From contig OZ242011.1 of assembly GCA_965204755.1 (NCBI GenBank), forward strand, positions 1,490,266 to 1,554,265: DNA of 64,000 bases. The letters run 5' to 3'. This DNA comes from Candidatus Marinacidobacterium sp. GTDB taxonomy: Bacteria > Acidobacteriota > Vicinamibacteria > Marinacidobacterales > Marinacidobacteraceae. The notes beneath the pieces were generated by a model, which did no database searches, was not told the DNA's origin, and saw only the letters and a list, made by a program, of their open reading frames with translations. Positions 25,816 through 64,000 of this stretch are shown here, in pieces (the stretch's first letter is position 1; every line of letters starts with the position of its first letter). The translations under genes were made by a program, and so were the position numbers.

Positions 25816-27725
25816 ATGAAGAAGAACCGCTCGAACCGGCAGTGGCGGTGGGAAACCGTCGACCCGAATGTGGGCGCTGCCGGCGGCGCCTTCGCGAAGG
25901 TGTTTCGCAACCTGGAGGAGAAGAAGCCCGGCTTTCTGGAGGAAGGCGCTCCGGGGTTGAACGCTTACCTGATGGCTCGAGAGGTCATCCAGAACGCATG
26001 GGACGCCGCCCTCGAGTTGCGGAAACCTGCCCCCCCCCCCCCCCCGCAAAAAGTCTTCCAGATTTCTACATCCAGTTCGACTTTCGTGTGCTGAGCGGTT
26101 CGGAAAAGAAGTCGCTCATCGCCACACTGGACTTGGGCGGGCATGTCGAGCGGCTTTCGCAACTCGAACGACAGACGATCGGTCTCGATGACGATCTCTG
26201 TCTGGATCATCTCGAGAGCAACGAACCGCTCCCGGTTCTCGTCATCGAGGAGACGGCAACGACCGGGATGTTCGGGCCGTGGAAGGGCGCCAAGTCGAAA
26301 CTCTTCAAGGCTCTCGCCGCCCTCGGCATCCAAGGCAAGGACGATGCGGATGCCGGGGGTGCCTTCGGTTTCGGCAAGGCGGGCCTGATTCGCGGTTCGG
26401 CCCCGCGGATCGTGGTGGCCTACACCTGCTTCCGGGAACAGATGGACGATCCAGGAGTTACCCGTCGCCTCTTGGGAATCACCTATTGGGACGCACATTC
26501 ACTGGACGACCGAGACTTCACCGGAATGGCGCGTTGGGACACGAACTCCGATGAGCCGCGACCGTTCGAGAACGACGAGGCGGACGGTATCGCCGAGGAA
26601 CTGGGGCTGAGGCTTCGCCACCCGGACAACGACGAGGACTTCGGCACTTCGTTCTTGATCCTGCAACCCACCGTCGATCCGGGGAGGCTGGAGACCGCGA
26701 TCAACCGCTCTTGGTGGCCGGCGCTGGAAGACACGACGCTCGGCTTCCAGGCAGCGATCCGGCCGCCCGGCGAAGACGCGCGTTCTCCGCGACCGCAACA
26801 GGACGCCGACCTGCAGCCCTTCGTCCGTGCTTATCGGCAGGCGACCTCCACCGCAAAGTTCATCGGCAAAGTTCCCAACCTCCACTCTTTTGATATCTGG
26901 GACTCGTCCCGACTACTGGGAAAACTCGTACTGGTCACCGACCCGGACGGTTGGTCGTTCCAGGACCCGAGTTCGTCATCGGATGAGAGTCTCGTCGCGC
27001 TGATGCGCAACACGCGGATGGTCGTGGAATATCGAAAGTTGGGGTTCCGGGAGACCACTCCGATCGTTCGCGGCGTCTTCGTGGCGGACGACGGCGTGAG
27101 CGGTCTTCTCCGGGAAACGGAACCCGTCGGGCACGATGCTTGGTATTCGGGTGGTGACGAGAACGATGCCAGCGAAGAGGCTCGTGCTGTCGCAGACTGC
27201 ATCCTGAAGAAAATCAAGGATCGCGTTCGCAAGGTTCGCAAGGACTTGGCGCCGCCCGCACCGAAACCGGAGTTCGTGAGGCTCCCGGAGTTCGACCGCA
27301 TCATGCGGCGCATCTTGGGCGGCGAGGGCCGAAAACAGGGGCCGACCGCGCAGAGGCGTTTCGTACGGTTGGATGGAATCGAGAGCGAGCCCGAGATCGT
27401 TGGCCACGGGCTCATCCGTACCACCGGGTCCGCGCAGTTCGGTCTGAGCGAAAATTTTCCGGTGTCCCGCCCCGGCGCACGCGTTGCCATCCAAGTCCGT
27501 TTCGTGGTACTCGAGGACGGTCAGGCCCGCGGCGCCAATAGCGTCCCGGTCGCAGTCGCGCCTCCCGATGGCTTCGAAGTCGCCGACGACGCCGATCCCC
27601 ACCGCTTCACGGGCTGGTTGGCTCGCGGCGACGAACACGGCTTCTCCTTCCAAACGGATCCTTACGACGAGGATTGGACCGGTCGGCTCTACATCGAGGC
27701 CGAATTCCTTTCCGAGGACTCTTGA
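25816..27725 (+). CDS. GHKL (Bergerat-fold, MORC/MutL-like) ATPase-domain protein, first gene of an R-M-like island; interrupted by a frameshift at the poly-C tract
   Basis: Segment 1 (25816..26094, frame 1) carries the N-box YLMAREVIQNAWDA. Segment 2 (25842..27725, frame 3) carries a G1-like box (VIEETATTGMFGP) and a G2 box (GGAFGFGKAGL, cf. MORC G-x-FG-x-G-x-K). The frames join only if the 16-C tract gains 1 nt or loses 2. GC is lower (~58-60%) than the flanks. Confidence 0.75.
26030..26045 (+). repeat. Homopolymeric C16 tract inside the GHKL ATPase gene
   Basis: Counted directly: c at 26030 through c at 26045. It is translated as PAPPPPPQ in the upstream frame and is out of frame with the downstream ATPase core. 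Confidence 0.9.
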
Positions 27726-28711
27726 ATCGAGAACGCAAGACCGTACGCCCGTTTCGGGGCGTAGCGCCGTCGCTGACCAGAGCCCTGCGGAATGCGGTTC
27801 TTCGGTTCGGAGAGAAACAGGTCACCGCGGGCGCTCGCCTCCAGTGGGACGACTTCGAGACCTACCGAGACCAAGACATTTTGCTGGAGTGGAGCGCGGA
27901 CGACGAGTCTCCGACCTTCTTGTCCGGGCTGAAACAAGGCTGCCGCGAGTCCGGTCTGCCTCCCGACAGTCTGGCTCTCGTCGTCACGGCCACCAGCCGG
28001 TATCTCGGTATCGTGGATGTCCTCTTCAACTGTCCTCTGGACGACTTGGATGAACTCGAACCTGCCCTTGACCTTCGGGCCGAGAAAACCGACGCGGCGG
28101 CTTGGAGGACATGTGTCCGAGGTTGCCGGGTGGACGCGTATCTCCTGCTCGCCCGCAAACTGGAAGAACGGCCTCTTCGCCCCTGGAGGAAGGGAGTGTG
28201 GCTGTCGAGGGCGAGTTTCACGGTAGCGACAGACTACACGGAGAGTCTGTTTCGACCGAGGAAACTGGACGACAAACAGCGGAAGCGATTTCAACTCTCG
28301 GTTCAGGCGCTCCGCTATGTCCATCTTCCGGAACCCGTCTGGGAGGAATATGACCCCGAAGAGCCGCCGGAGGTGTACTTGGACGCCGAGATCATGGCGC
28401 AGATCGCGGCGAAGCCGAAAGCGCTGCCGAGCCGCCTGGCCCAAGCGGAACTCGCCTATGTGTTCCTGCGTGGCGTCCTCACCGATGCTCACATGAACCG
28501 AAAGCAGTGGCGCGGGCGCATGTGGCGGGACATCGCGAACACACTGCTCGGCAAGGCCCTTCGCGCCATCGCCGGGAAGAACGCGCCCGTCGCCGAGTGC
28601 GCTCGATGGATGGACAGACTCGGCAGTGACGGTGGCTTGGAGGGTGTCGTGTCGGAGTGCGAGGGCGTCACCGAAATTCGCGCTCTTCTTCGCGACGCGT
28701 TTCGGGAGTAG
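27722..28711 (+). CDS. Hypothetical protein (island gene 2), no recognisable family
   Basis: ORF 27674..28711. A TTG at 27722 overlaps the upstream TGA (TTGA), suggesting translational coupling. Coherent non-repetitive composition; 329 aa. Confidence 0.6.
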   Translation: MNRERKTVRPFRGVAPSLTRALRNAVLRFGEKQVTAGARLQWDDFETYRDQDILLEWSADDESPTFLSGLKQGCRESGLPPDSLALVVTATSRYLGIVDVLFNCPLDDLDELEPALDLRAEKTDAAAWRTCVRGCRVDAYLLLARKLEERPLRPWRKGVWLSRASFTVATDYTESLFRPRKLDDKQRKRFQLSVQALRYVHLPEPVWEEYDPEEPPEVYLDAEIMAQIAAKPKALPSRLAQAELAYVFLRGVLTDAHMNRKQWRGRMWRDIANTLLGKALRAIAGKNAPVAECARWMDRLGSDGGLEGVVSECEGVTEIRALLRDAFRE

Positions 28712-28716
28712 CCACG

Positions 28717-29439
28717 ATGCGATACAAGACACTCCCGCTCCAGGAGTGTCGGCGTTTCGCCCGCGAGCGACTCGCGGGAGAGACGCCGGACATCGGTACG
28801 GGCGTTGTCTTCGCCGGAGCCGGCGAAGACCTCGACATAAAGCCGATCCGCAAGGCCGCCAAGAAGATCGTCCGTCTCGTCGACGACAAGGCGAAGGATC
28901 GGGATCGAATCGAGGGGAAGGCCGCTGTTCTCCTCTACGACGGCCTTGCCGGAGTCCCGGTCGACGCACTCGACGATCCGGGTTTCTGGCGCTACCTGAG
29001 TGTCGGATTGGCGTTTTGGGGCTTCATCGCCTGGAGGGAGCACCGCGCACTGCAGAAGGGCGACAACTTCCTCAAGTATGTCGACGGGAAGAAGGCGACC
29101 GAGTGTGTCCTTCCGCGCATGTACATGCGCGTGTTGGCGCTCGGCGCCCGGGACGACCCGAAGGGACAGTTCCGGGAACTGGCTACGGCGCTTCCGGCCG
29201 CGACGGACTTCTGGCGGAGTCATGTGGTCCGGGTGCAGACCGCGGCGTCGCCGGCCGTCGTTCGGGCGTTCGCGCGAATGCAAAAAGAGAGGCGTCTCAA
29301 CACCGACGATCTCCGGGAGTTCGCGAAGGACATTTCCAAGATCCGTTCGACGGTCGTTTTGAGCATCTACAACGACGAGGAAGCCGACATCTTCATCCGA
29401 GACCTTCGCGCGAAGTTCGACCGCCGGAAGGCCGGATAG
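28717..29439 (+). CDS. Hypothetical protein (island gene 3), no recognisable family; weak PD-(D/E)xK-like motif
   Basis: ATG at 28717 (MRYKTLPLQECRRF…), 6 nt after the gene-2 stop. The N-terminal TPD…(14 aa)…EDLDIK has the spacing of a PD-(D/E)xK nuclease motif, but this is speculative. 240 aa. Confidence 0.6.
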   Translation: MRYKTLPLQECRRFARERLAGETPDIGTGVVFAGAGEDLDIKPIRKAAKKIVRLVDDKAKDRDRIEGKAAVLLYDGLAGVPVDALDDPGFWRYLSVGLAFWGFIAWREHRALQKGDNFLKYVDGKKATECVLPRMYMRVLALGARDDPKGQFRELATALPAATDFWRSHVVRVQTAASPAVVRAFARMQKERRLNTDDLREFAKDISKIRSTVVLSIYNDEEADIFIRDLRAKFDRRKAG

Positions 29440-30806
29440 TGAGTCTTGCCGGCGCCGCCCGGCAGTCCCGTGTGGTTGCCGCGAAGGGAACGCTTCGGGA
29501 GGATTATCGGCACAACGGGAGTGTCCGGCACTCGCTCGCGCTCGGCGCGCGACGGGGCCTGAGCGCCGATCTGGGAGAGCCGGAGAGCGCCCCTCGCTGC
29601 AGCGGCGATCCCAAGGGCGAGTGGTGGCGCGCCTATCTCCGCGGCCGCCGACCGGTCACAGCGAACCCGAGCGGGAAGACCCTGCGCATCGCCGACCTGT
29701 TCTGCGGGGCCGGGGGACTCGCGCTCGGGGTTCGCCAGTTGTGCGACGAAGCCGGTCTCGAGCCGGTCTGGGAGTTCATCGCCGACCGAGACGACGGCGC
29801 GGTGGCGGTGTACGCGGGGAACCACCCGGTGCGGCGGGTCTCGAGGGAATCGGTGTCCGACCTGCTGGACTACCGGGTGCGGCGGCGGTCGAGCGGGGCC
29901 GAGTTCGTCTATGAATCGGAGTTCCTCGACCCCGAGTTGCGCAAGGCGGTGCGCGGCGTGGACCTGGTGATGGCCGGGCCGCCGTGCGAGGGGCATTCGA
30001 ACCTGAACAACCACACGCGCCGGGACGACCGGCGGAACCACCTCTATCTCGCGGTTCCGGCGTTCGCGGTCGCTGCGGGGGCGCGGATGGTGCTCATCGA
30101 GAATGTGCCCGCGGTGGAGAACGACCGCAGCGGAGTGGTCGAGGCGGCGCGTAACCTGTTGGAGGCTGCCGGTTATTCCGTCGAAACCGGCGTCCTCGCC
30201 GCCGACGCCATGGGATGGCCGCAGACGCGGCGGCGGTTCTTCCTGGTGGCTCACCGTTCCCGCGCGCCAGTGCCGTTCGCGGCGATCCGTGAGGGTCTCG
30301 CCGACGATGCTCCGCGCCCGCTCTGGTGGGCCATCGAGGACCTGGAGGAGACCGGCGGCGACGATCCGCTGCATCGCGTGGGGGAACTCAGCGAGGAGAA
30401 CCGCGCTCGTATCGCGTGGCTGTTCGACAACGACGCTCACGAACTCGACCTCTCCGAACGGCCGGCCTGCCACCGGGACGGCACGACCTACTCGGCGGTG
30501 TACGGGCGTATGCACCGGGACCAGCCCGCGCCGACGATCACGACCGGTTTCCTGACACCGGGCCGCGGCCGGTTCGTGCATCCGACCCGGCGACGGACGC
30601 TGACCCCGCGCGAAGCGGCCCGGCTGCAGGGTTTTCCCGACACCTACCGGTTCGCTCCGGAGGCCGACCGAGTCCCCACCCGGTCGCAACTCGCGAAGTG
30701 GATCGGGGACGCGGTGCCCATGCCGCTCGGCTACGCCGCGGCGCTCTCCCTGCTCGCCCCCGAGTTGGGCCGGGCGAGCCCGCGACGGAAACCGCAGCAC
30801 GCGTGA
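29439..30806 (+). CDS. dcm: DNA (cytosine-5)-methyltransferase, Dcm-like
   Basis: Motif I LRIADLFCGAGGLALG, PC motif GPPCEGHS, ENV motif LIENVPAV, motif VIII QTRRRFFLVA, motif X TPREAARLQGFPDTYRF. The GTG start overlaps the upstream TAG; ~70-aa N-terminal extension. Confidence 0.9.
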   Translation: MSLAGAARQSRVVAAKGTLREDYRHNGSVRHSLALGARRGLSADLGEPESAPRCSGDPKGEWWRAYLRGRRPVTANPSGKTLRIADLFCGAGGLALGVRQLCDEAGLEPVWEFIADRDDGAVAVYAGNHPVRRVSRESVSDLLDYRVRRRSSGAEFVYESEFLDPELRKAVRGVDLVMAGPPCEGHSNLNNHTRRDDRRNHLYLAVPAFAVAAGARMVLIENVPAVENDRSGVVEAARNLLEAAGYSVETGVLAADAMGWPQTRRRFFLVAHRSRAPVPFAAIREGLADDAPRPLWWAIEDLEETGGDDPLHRVGELSEENRARIAWLFDNDAHELDLSERPACHRDGTTYSAVYGRMHRDQPAPTITTGFLTPGRGRFVHPTRRRTLTPREAARLQGFPDTYRFAPEADRVPTRSQLAKWIGDAVPMPLGYAAALSLLAPELGRASPRRKPQHA

Positions 30807-31245
30807 CCGGCGCCGGCGCCGGGCCGGCGCGGGAGGAGTCGGTCCCGGAGTCCGTTCGGCGGCGGATGCGGAATACGCCGCGGCGGGATACGCCGTTCGA
30901 GGTCGCGGTGCGGAAGCAGGCGTACGCGTTGGGCCTGCGCTATCGCGTGGACTGCGGCGTTCCCGGAGTGACCCGGGGACGGCCCGACCTGGTATTCAGC
31001 GGACGCCGGGTGGCCGTGTTCCTCGACGGCTGCTCTGGCACTCCTGCCCGATCCACCGCTCGGCCCCGGCCACGAACCGCGAGTGGTGGGCCGCCAAACT
31101 GCGGGCGAACGCCGACCGCGACGAACGCCACCGCCGGGAACTCGAGGACGCCGGATGGACCGTCCTCCGCTTCTGGGAACACGAAGATCCCGCAACCGTC
31201 GCCGCCGAAATCGCCGCCGCGGTTCGCGGGTCCCAACCGGGCTGA
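30803..31245 (+). pseudogene. vsr: Very-short-patch-repair endonuclease (Vsr), frameshifted
   Basis: GTG at 30803 overlaps the dcm stop (GTGA), as in E. coli dcm-vsr. The N-part reads …ALGLRYRVDCGVPGVTRGRPDLVFSGRRVAVFLDGC. After ~31034 the conserved FWHSCPIHRSAPATNREWWAAKLRANADRDERHRRELEDAGWTVLRFWEHED continues in frame 1, which is consistent with one missing T (tgcTtctgg→tgctctgg). Confidence 0.75.

Positions 31246-62375: not shown

Positions 62376-64000
<1,625 letters not shown>

Follow-up and report, generated by a model that had tools for sequence, protein, structure and literature searches.

MORC-type ATPases were predicted in 2008 to act in bacterial restriction-modification (R-M) systems, and R-M-like operons holding a MORC or paraMORC ATPase together with a cytosine methylase and Vsr were described in the same work (PMC2292703). 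In most of the MORC/paraMORC operons described there, an SF2 helicase is encoded as well, and so is a nuclease that can be recognised as such (RE fold, HNH or HKD). An ExxxH motif at the end of the S5 domain is typical of paraMORC2, and the motif GhXhhpXXRhl is specific to MORCs and unites the prokaryotic and eukaryotic proteins (PMC2292703). For VcSduA, a GHKL-Shedu protein belonging to paraMORC3, mutations showed that phage defence requires the GHKL ATPase (PMC12137116).

Here we have analysed a five-gene block whose first gene encodes an ATPase of this general kind and carries a long homopolymer. Such tracts are a known property of phase-variable restriction genes. Type III mod/res and Type I hsd genes vary through homopolymer or repeat tracts in Haemophilus, Neisseria, Helicobacter and Campylobacter, and a G tract is present in pglX of the Streptomyces Pgl/BREX system. 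So far, contingency-locus phase variation has been known chiefly from pathogens adapted to a host, and from Streptomyces Pgl.

The block was found by ORF analysis at the predicted place in the window, by which we mean the whole 64 kb stretch of DNA that was analysed. All five genes are co-oriented, in the order G1-G2-G3-dcm-vsr:

25816..27725, + strand: G1, MORC-like GHKL+S5 ATPase with a C-terminal beta-sandwich (ORFs, AlphaFold, Foldseek, PADLOC)
26030..26045, + strand: homopolymer of 16 C within G1, a proposed hypermutable on/off switch, encoding a poly-Pro loop when in frame
27722..28711, + strand: G2, 329-aa orphan-family protein, always between G1 and G3
28717..29439, + strand: G3, 240-aa DUF6339 protein, all-helical (PF19866, AlphaFold)
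29439..30806, + strand: dcm, C5 cytosine DNA methyltransferase of 455 aa, the proposed self-marking arm (profile searches)
30803..31245, + strand: vsr, very-short-patch repair endonuclease gene, disrupted by a 1-nt deletion after 31033

The tight junctions of the original prediction were recovered, except that the gap between G2 and G3 is 5 nt and not 6. G1 and G2 meet in TTGA, within which lies the TTG start codon of G2, and G2 homologues share the N-terminus MNRER... with the protein started at this TTG. The TAG stop of G3 and the GTG start of dcm overlap by 1 nt (one G), and dcm and vsr are joined by GTGA. Two genes are broken in the window, G1 by the 16-C run and vsr by one missing T. The GC content of G1-G3 is 62.5-63.2%, about 9 points under the genome, while dcm and vsr have 71-73% and the window mean is 71.9%. 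The lower GC claimed for the first three genes therefore holds, although not at the 58-60% given earlier. Lower GC and flanks common to no other lineage agree with the proposal that the block is foreign. Around the cassette lie mostly housekeeping genes rather than defence islands, and the reported absence of an integrase was reproduced within ~10 kb using Pfam on the sister contig L001.

Of 67 independent genome loci, 58 keep the arrangement G1>G2>G3>dcm, co-oriented and tightly spaced; they come from Acidobacteriota, Acidimicrobiia, Chloroflexota, Gemmatimonadota and other groups, many of them from MAGs of sponge symbionts. Conservation of order and orientation across phyla supports the view that the genes form a single unit. 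It also answers the objection that genes 2 and 3 might occur elsewhere apart from their GHKL and Dcm partners, which is not so in this clade. A Dcm homologue follows G3 in every locus with sequence available. The chromosomal context differs at each locus, the sole recurring neighbour being vsr, which 28 of the 67 loci have no more than 10 kb away from the cassette. Remnant loci have kept G3/dcm(/vsr) and lost G1/G2; this resembles the decay of R-M systems and was therefore counted for an R-M-like reading. On Rhizobiaceae plasmids, distant relatives have no annotated dcm adjoining, so the G1-G2-G3 core appears to have no strict need for the methylase. We conclude that G1-G2-G3-dcm is a real, horizontally mobile four-gene cassette, often accompanied by vsr.

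With the C run set to 17, G1 encodes 636 aa, and the AlphaFold model of this protein has a pLDDT of 81.7. The best structural matches of the model include MORC3, SMCHD1, MORC2 and also MutL, and Foldseek further matched it to Topo VI-B (6e-8) and HtpG (5e-7). The overall fold is that expected of the GHKL superfamily, a Bergerat domain followed by an S5/transducer domain. The key residues of the predicted N box (EVIQNAWDA) and G2 box (GGAFGFGKAGL) are invariant in 32 homologues: E56, N60 and D63 of the N box (ExxxNxxD), located on model helix 48-69, and G181, G182, G185, G187 and K188 of the G2 box (GxxGxG, ATP lid). A TRAP1 N box profile matched G1 weakly (E 0.28). Model confidence is low in the ATP lid region 171-183, as is common for flexible lids. 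At the position of the G1 box, where DxGxG is expected, the same 32 homologues have an invariant E146 followed by xxxxG151-M152-x-G154, and this position fits the end of strand 139-147. Since an invariant Glu replaces the adenine-contacting Asp and the spacer is one residue longer, ATP binding by G1 is not assured. E436-P437-x-x-H440-D441 (ExxxH), just past helix 426-434 at the end of the S5 region, is likewise invariant in the family. None of the Pfam HATPase models, HATPase_c_3 included, matched any of the 32 members, and the label 'MORC-like' is therefore given by structure only. As modelled, G1 is a GHKL+S5 ATPase nearest to MORC3/SMCHD1, and the GHKL identity proposed for gene 1 is upheld by the two invariant boxes and by the structural matches.

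The two middle proteins had been described as unrecognisable. For G2 this stands: the family has 526 clusters at 50% identity, nearly all stand-alone proteins of ~330 aa, and no match was found in Pfam, NCBIfam, PADLOC, PHROGs or PDB sequences. G3, on the other hand, is a DUF6339 protein, and some of its homologues match the PADLOC model PDC-M33C. PF19866 is precomputed for all listed G3 homologues, and the direct scan of the window G3 is weak (6e-4). The G3 model has a pLDDT of 92.2, and the invariant residues include many Arg, Asp and aromatics. Searches of Pfam, NCBIfam, PADLOC and PDB sequences detected no PD-(D/E)xK, HNH, PLD or SF2 helicase domain in G1-G3, and the structure search gave no match to a nuclease fold for the G3 or G1 model. 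The suggestion that genes 2 and 3 supply a nuclease is thus not supported, G3 being all-helical and G2 matching nothing in the sequence searches.

Dcm is recognised by Pfam PF00145 (DNA_methylase, 7e-38), TIGR00675 (1e-30, above cutoff) and PADLOC DruM/MTase_II (3e-84). Once the sequence is repaired, and only then, Vsr matches TIGR00632 (5e-35) and Pfam Vsr (1e-16). The window reads TGCTCTGG where nine near-identical contigs (L001-L003 and L073-L078) read TGCTTCTGG, and with this T the gene is intact in all nine and encodes 147 aa. Both identities were correctly predicted, each family scoring above its cutoff, whereas the frameshift in the window vsr had been missed.

G1 had been treated as a single ORF, and its frame break as a defect in need of repair. 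In fact the 16-C run shifts the frame, the in-frame counts for the window gene being 14, 17 or 20 C, and the run belongs to a recurrent class of hypermutable homopolymers that is the most informative feature of the locus. It is one of two G/C runs of at least 8 nt in the window, where ~0.007 runs of at least 16 nt are expected, and it encodes a loop (residues 73-77) with pLDDT below 50 in the AlphaFold model. In ~99% identical contigs its length is 14, 16, 19, 22, 25 and 25 C, and the 14-C contig has an intact G1 of 635 aa. Furthermore, G or C runs of 8-32 nt were found in G1 of ~20 species at three loop positions, at both homologous and non-homologous sites and in both C and G versions. Of these runs, six keep the reading frame and 14 break it, close to the 1:2 expected under drifting run length; homopolymer lengths in assemblies are error-prone, so that individual on/off calls are uncertain. 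Runs of at least 10 nt number 18 in G1, 0 in G2-G5 and 8 elsewhere, G1 making up 10.5% of the bases (binomial p 1.5e-12), and dcm has no such run in any locus examined. Additionally, G1 carries four independent IS insertions.

These recurrent, length-polymorphic G/C runs in G1 are the new result of this work. Run enrichment and IS insertions together make G1 the preferred target of inactivation among the cassette genes. Pure (CCC)n/(GGG)n tracts at three G1 sites, but at none in the neighbouring four genes, argue that mutability is under selection rather than the encoded residues, and the four IS insertions that occur besides the runs argue for selection to silence G1. Phase variation of G1 by slippery runs is probable in many bacteria. 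Long homopolymers also recur outside the cassette, in favour of this reading: the second one of the window, 34 G, lies within a Type III-like N6/N4 methylase gene, and a 23-G run is present inside another methylase gene at locus L033.

We read the block as a horizontally mobile R-M-like defence cassette of the MORC/paraMORC kind, with Dcm self-marking and a phase-variable ATPase, and give this reading a probability of roughly 0.55. Dcm would constitutively methylate a short cytosine motif on the host chromosome, and Vsr, where present, would repair the T:G mismatches that arise from deamination of 5-methylcytosine. ATP binding would lead to a G1 dimer, like in other GHKL+S5 ATPases, and a complex of G1, G2 and G3 would engage DNA that lacks the Dcm mark and block or destroy it. 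The dangerous component would be G1, with its expression set by the long G/C homopolymer in a surface loop. Slipped-strand mispairing would change the run length and shift the frame, so that restriction is heritably switched off or on while methylation stays on; as methylation stays on throughout, switching back on would not be lethal. In this genome G1 would be in the off phase (16 C), together with a frameshifted vsr. A more specific version, which we hold only tentatively and consider rather doubtful, is restriction without a nuclease, where G1 as a MORC-like clamp would with G2/G3 topologically silence or block Dcm-unmarked DNA, and convergent homopolymer switches at three loops would provide bet-hedged heritable immunity. 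Bacteria would then have a counterpart to the MORC/SMCHD1 silencing of eukaryotes.

An unlikely alternative to a heritable switch is that the run is a tolerated poly-Pro/poly-Gly linker with frameshifts miscalled in sequencing or assembly, or that RNA polymerase slippage yields a share of in-frame mRNA at any DNA length and makes it an expression attenuator. Bacterial RNA polymerases are known to slip on long homopolymers, and the runs lie in low-confidence, insertion-tolerant surface loops. Several short-read contigs break at the run, odd sequence is present upstream of it in L002 and L076, and two contigs of one long-read sample both have 25 C. Against this, the window and L001 differ by only four indels over 20.4 kb, of which the run is one and the other three are single-base changes, one each in runs of 6/7 C and 3/4 C and one in a TT pair. 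Confinement of the pure tracts to three sites of one gene, in C and G versions and never in its four neighbours, is likewise hard to reconcile with a mere linker, and the IS insertions in G1 act in the same, silencing direction.

Decay rather than switching would explain the out-of-frame state of G1 at 16 C, and also a 1-nt vsr deletion that is not in a homopolymer and is shared by none of the nine sister contigs; the clear decay to G3/dcm remnants at other loci points the same way. On that account G1 and vsr would be pseudogenes, with only Dcm (perhaps also G2/G3) active and no current defence role. We regard it as improbable here, because apart from the run G1 has no stop or indel against the sister strains, one of which keeps it intact, the frame returns with a slip of ±1/2 nt, none of G2, G3 and dcm is broken, and loss of vsr leaves restriction enabled. 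Quite improbable, too, is a function other than immunity, either a module for chromatin or repair (two accessory proteins and a MORC-like clamp that would read or organise Dcm-methylated DNA, for example in gene silencing or in mismatch processing with Vsr) or a selfish methylase-linked addiction module. The best structural matches of G1 are indeed chromatin-compaction and repair ATPases, no nuclease was found in the searches run, and housekeeping flanks and vsr linkage would suit such a module. The patchy cross-phylum spread, varied contexts and lower GC fit a mobile conflict system instead, costly restriction genes typically show such repeated silencing of a single component through slippery runs and IS elements, and G1 and G3 match a defence-candidate model set.

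If the defence reading is right, a compact cassette of four genes without helicase or recognisable nuclease, present in hundreds of sequence clusters, offers a clean system to ask what a MORC-like clamp does to unmethylated DNA, and bears on a possible descent of eukaryotic MORC/SMCHD1 silencing from such a mechanism. That homopolymers recur in G1 marks this gene as the component that is costly and decisive. Contingency-locus phase variation would be extended to high-GC, uncultured Acidobacteriota, Acidimicrobiia and Chloroflexota and to sponge symbionts. In annotation pipelines, G1 will be called a pseudogene in about two thirds of the genomes and the system will be missed.

Among catalogued systems the nearest is PDC-M33, a phage-defence candidate of PADLOC-DB v2.0.0, to which the matches are weak and partial. 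PDC-M33A matched G1 in 32 of 32 homologues (best 1e-17), the window G1 over residues 136-201 only (4e-8), and PDC-M33C matched 17 of 28 G3 homologues at E up to 0.1 (best 9e-6) but not the window G3. The PADLOC check proposed earlier thus gave matches for all G1 homologues and for part of the G3 homologues, and none of 21 G2 homologues matched a PDC-M33 model at E up to 0.1. The A-B-C order of PDC-M33 agrees with that of a G1-like gene, a 298-aa gene and a DUF6339 gene on Agrobacterium and Rhizobium plasmids. We found no paper on PDC-M33 by name, and no experimental test of it or of the cassette family in the literature consulted. The cassette looks like a catalogued yet uncharacterised kind, a Dcm-linked relative of PDC-M33. 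With these matches, and with the class of MORC/paraMORC ATPase, methylase and Vsr known since 2008 (PMC2292703), the arrangement is not the wholly undescribed variant it was thought it might be.

Like the MORC/paraMORC operons (PMC2292703), the block combines a GHKL+S5 ATPase, a cytosine methylase and a Vsr-family endonuclease, and is mobile and sporadic. The invariant ExxxH of G1 is shared with paraMORC2 (PMC2292703), to which G1 is compared here by this motif. Unlike most of those operons, the cassette has G2 and DUF6339 in place of an SF2 helicase and a recognisable nuclease, and its ATPase is not matched by HATPase_c_3. The HEF_HK / Response_reg_2 system (PMC8011034, Bellieny-Rabelo et al. 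2021) also has a paraMORC-related GHKL protein with a small partner, a C5 methyltransferase and often vsr, but its methylase lies upstream and G1, G2 and G3 match none of its families. VcSduA, which acts as one protein alone, carries at its C-terminus a PD-(D/E)xK DUF4263 nuclease (PMC12137116); G1 has no such domain and ends in a beta-sandwich. Measured against Type I-III R-M systems, a cognate methyltransferase is present in the operon and no recognisable endonuclease or translocase was detected by the searches run. BREX/Pgl shares methylation-based self-marking, large ATPases and the lack of a known nuclease, but its N6-adenine methylase, PglZ and BrxC/L are all absent from the cassette. 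With phase-variable R-M genes the cassette shares a long G/C homopolymer in a candidate defence gene, polymorphic in length between near-identical strains and in mixed frames, and the same window has the 34-G run in a Type III-like methylase gene. It differs from them in that the run, a putative switch, is in the MORC-like ATPase and never in the cassette methylase, and in that runs of C as well as of G arose at three different loops, in uncultured bacteria (many of them sponge-associated) that belong to several high-GC phyla.

Five co-oriented reading frames at 25816-31245 of the window encode a MORC-like GHKL ATPase (G1), an orphan 329-aa protein (G2), a DUF6339 protein (G3), a C5 cytosine methylase (dcm) and a very-short-patch repair endonuclease (vsr). 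The junctions between them are the following:

27725, + strand, end of the G1 stop codon TGA (ORF analysis)
27722, + strand, start of G2, the TTG within TTGA, overlapping the end of G1
28717, + strand, start of G3, 5 nt beyond G2
29439, + strand, GTG start of dcm, with one base in common with the TAG stop of G3
30803, + strand, GTG start of vsr, overlapping the TGA of dcm

These positions bear out the original prediction that the five genes, with their coupled junctions, form a genuine operon, with two corrections: G1 and vsr are frame-disrupted in the window, and the GC content of the first three genes is 62.5-63.2% and not ~58-60%. The gap between G2 and G3, given there as 6 nt, is 5 nt. The values for dcm and vsr are 71-73%, and for the whole window 71.9%. 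Upstream of the island lie pckA and gpmA, downstream of it flotillin, glnA, P-II and amt. The claimed absence of an integrase held, as neither an integrase nor a transposase was found within ~10 kb of the island. A search of the island for direct repeats at its flanks, for sites resembling att and for internal terminators or promoters gave nothing above chance. The other three of the five genes are intact in the window.

A G3 profile search with one genome per species gave 67 loci, onto which profiles of all five proteins were mapped. The order G1, G2, G3, dcm (the cassette) was found on one strand in 58 of these, with median gaps of ~30 nt, and ~165 nt ahead of dcm, and the other loci are either truncated by contig ends or remnants with G3/dcm but without G1/G2. 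Within the clade, genes 2 and 3 thus keep the partners whose absence had been named as evidence against the prediction; distant relatives are without an annotated dcm nearby. The loci come from Vicinamibacteria and Thermoanaerobaculia (Acidobacteriota), from many Acidimicrobiia, and from Chloroflexota, Gemmatimonadota and other groups; sponge-symbiont MAGs (Poriferisodalis, Poriferisocius, Spongiisociaceae) make up a large share of the hosts. None of the loci in other lineages shares the flanking genes of the window (gpmA / flotillin synteny). A further conserved flank partner (nuclease, helicase or integrase) was rejected, since the sole recurring flank family is vsr. Clustering of the ±5 kb flanks placed it in 22 of 64 loci, and profile mapping at most 10 kb from the cassette in 28 of 67 loci, 13 of these directly downstream on the same strand. 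The conserved order, the unshared flanks and the recurrence of vsr alone mark the unit as a mobile module of four genes, with Vsr as an optional addition.

Some Acidimicrobiia carry a second, diverged G1-G2-G3 copy beside the first (L032:13881-17486, - strand; L034:12130-15922, - strand; L069:2637-6157), whose orientation is reversed in L032 and L034. Two paralogous cassettes can therefore adjoin, with one dcm region in common.

What the analysis adds to the original prediction is a set of homopolymers that are recurrent, convergent, polymorphic between strains and confined to the gene of the ATPase. In the window, a run of 16 C at 26030-26045 shifts the frame of G1, whereas a single protein of 635-637 aa would result from 14, 17 or 20 C. 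The window holds only two G/C runs of at least 8 nt, this one and a run of 34 G in a methylase gene, and the chance expectation for runs of at least 16 nt is ~0.007. Over 64 non-redundant loci (1.24 Mb), runs of at least 10 nt were counted 18 times in G1, which covers 10.5% of the bases, 0 times in the four genes from G2 to vsr and 8 times elsewhere (binomial p 1.5e-12). The G1 runs cluster at three protein positions, every one a loop (L numbers are cassette loci in other genomes):

Run site 1, directly after the N-box helix: C in the window, L004, L009, L010, L021, L022 and L027; G in L059 and L062
Run site 2, profile position ~110-133: G in L005, L013, L015 and L019
Run site 3, position ~314: G in L035, L047, L048, L051, L054, L056 and L060

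Additionally, a 47-C run opening contig L040 may belong to the site at ~314, its placement inside G1 not being established.

Six of the G1 runs keep the reading frame (L004 with 32 C, L019, L022, L027, L035 and L060) and fourteen break it, which is close to the 1:2 predicted under drifting length. Contigs ~99% identical to the window have runs of 14, 16, 19, 22, 25 and 25 C, where single run lengths read from assemblies are unreliable. G1 is called as a single ORF of 635 aa in the 14-C contig, and three more contigs of the same identity start within the run. A two-colour-chemistry poly-G artefact was rejected, since the runs are found within long contigs and also within complete chromosomes, where they occupy conserved positions of the protein, and since the in-frame runs encode Pro/Gly stretches present in database proteins.

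Unrelated or odd sequence is joined upstream of the poly-C in two short-read scaffolds (L002:1-272 and L076:~2280-2330). These joins probably arose by misassembly across the homopolymer and call for caution on run lengths in such records. Extra C runs of 10-21 nt, intergenic or at gene ends, were seen near the cassette (L008:16619-16675; L010:14310; L012:12980; L027:12290; L041:8081), that of L041 immediately upstream of a degraded G1 and that of L027 immediately downstream of dcm.

Four different IS elements interrupt G1 (L006:6685-7747, L014:7606-8826, L020:6500-7933 and L053:6754-8541). Their transposase ORFs belong to distinct families and the host MAGs are unrelated; no IS insertions were seen in G2, G3 or dcm. 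It is G1, never dcm, that is repeatedly silenced, whether by IS elements or by slippery runs, which were acquired independently at three sites.

The second long run of the window lies in another modification gene:

62376-64000, + strand, Type III-like N6/N4 DNA methyltransferase gene (Pfam N6_N4_Mtase 1.4e-26; motifs DPPYN and FAGSG)

The 34-G run inside it (63696-63729) is out of frame, 32 or 35 G being in frame, and a plausible C-terminus (GTFSYFRLGKP...) continues in a different frame past the run. From its sequence, this R-M gene appears to be another contingency locus of the window genome, the second beside G1. In L033, a Dehalococcoidia MAG, a DNA methylase gene ~3 kb downstream of the cassette has a 23-G run (L033:15323-15345) that separates its HEAT-repeat domain from its N6_N4_Mtase domain.

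The disruption of vsr in the window is of another kind. One T is missing after 31033 (31033-31034; TGCTCTGG vs TGCTTCTGG), which splits an otherwise perfect Vsr, and the repaired gene matches TIGR00632 at 5e-35. The T is present and Vsr intact (147 aa) in 9 of 9 related contigs covering the site (L001-L003, L073-L078). The deletion, TT to T with no long homopolymer, is seen in the window only, among ten related sequences. A generally poor assembly was rejected as the cause, as the window differs from L001 over 20.4 kb by merely four indels, namely the G1 run, the vsr T and two outside the island that fall between the called genes of L001. With so few indels the loss may be a real recent pseudogenisation; the frameshift reflects a true mutation of recent date or else a rare error.

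A G1 model (AlphaFold2, 32-sequence alignment; pLDDT 81.7, pTM 0.71) gave Foldseek matches to Topo VI-B, HtpG and TRAP1 with E-values from 6e-8 to 1e-6. The N box (E56, N60, D63) and the G2 box (G181 G182 xx G185 x G187 K188) are invariant in the 32 homologues. The original reading of the block as an operon with a MORC-like GHKL ATPase and a Dcm/Vsr arm is upheld. The G1-box Asp is replaced by an invariant Glu (E146) with a spacer one residue longer, and with this Glu, ATP binding by G1 is unproven. The S5 region terminates in an invariant E436-x-x-x-H440; a motif of the E-x-x-x-H type at the S5 end is given as typical of paraMORC2 (PMC2292703). The C-terminus has a helical linker and then, at 517-631, a beta-sandwich similar to binding domains of the Ig-like type. 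Pfam HATPase models matched none of the 32 members, and the PDB sequence-profile search with G1 gave just a non-significant TRAP1 N-box match.

An exhaustive profile search found 526 clusters of the G2 family at 50% identity, almost all stand-alone and ~330 aa long; a search among them for fusions to known domains gave essentially stand-alone proteins and one of 797 aa. The window G2 and its homologues had no match in Pfam, NCBIfam, PADLOC, PHROGs or PDB sequence profiles. G3 is a DUF6339 protein in which numerous Arg, Asp, His and aromatic positions are invariant; nothing useful came from PDB sequence-profile searches with G2 and G3. Pfam, NCBIfam, PADLOC and PHROGs searched with G1-G3, singly and across 32, 21, 74 and 28 homologues, returned only PDC-M33A/C and a weak match to DUF6339. 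No recognisable nuclease was found in the cassette with domain libraries and PDB sequence profiles on G1-G3, and the suggestion that genes 2 and 3 act as the nuclease is without support.

Several features fit an R-M-like system in which Dcm would mark self: tight coupling of the genes, a Dcm that is obligatory and a Vsr that is frequent, mobility, the match to a defence candidate, and a decay in which G1/G2 are lost first and the methylase is kept. The silencing of G1 is the pattern expected if an activity that is costly or endangers the cell itself depends on G1, and if turning G1 off and on is safe only as long as methylation lasts. As other GHKL+S5 proteins suggest, ATP would make G1 a dimer that clamps or loops DNA, and the recognition or effector step would be supplied by G2 and G3. 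We favour phase variation, with G1 apparently in its off phase in the window genome, as read from its frame. A chromatin, repair or addiction module rather than immunity is the least probable of the alternatives; the repair gene vsr and the lack of a recognised nuclease may be set on its side, the match to a phage-defence candidate on the other.

Two further readings, both unlikely and to a similar degree, concern G1 and the island. The runs, lying in loops and of uncertain length, could be a tolerated linker with miscalled lengths, or an attenuator acting via transcriptional slippage; against this count the C and G runs at three sites of one gene and the IS insertions in the same gene. The island could also be a decaying remnant in the window genome, with two of its genes frame-disrupted, one of them by a deletion that the related contigs lack; against this counts the single G1 ORF in one of those contigs. 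The G1 homopolymers are a concrete, testable handle on the workings of bacterial MORC-like systems.

PDC-M33A, a component of a PADLOC phage-defence candidate, was matched by 32 of 32 G1 homologues (best 1e-17) and PDC-M33C by 17 of 28 G3 homologues (best 9e-6); G2 homologues had no match in PADLOC. Literature searches on DUF6339, PDC-M33 and Poriferisodalis found no paper mentioning them, and one on phase variation in sponge symbionts found nothing relevant. Iyer et al. (PMC2292703) have described R-M-like operons in which MORC/paraMORC ATPases accompany cytosine methylases and Vsr, as a rule together with SF2 helicases and nucleases, and Bellieny-Rabelo et al. (PMC8011034) another GHKL/C5-MTase/Vsr arrangement. 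A GHKL-Shedu protein of the paraMORC3 type has been shown to protect against phages (PMC12137116). Given the PDC-M33 matches and the described operons, the suggestion of an undescribed variant stands in part: the class is already known from computation and its candidate catalogued but untested, and neither the clade linked to Dcm nor the pair of partner proteins has been characterised.
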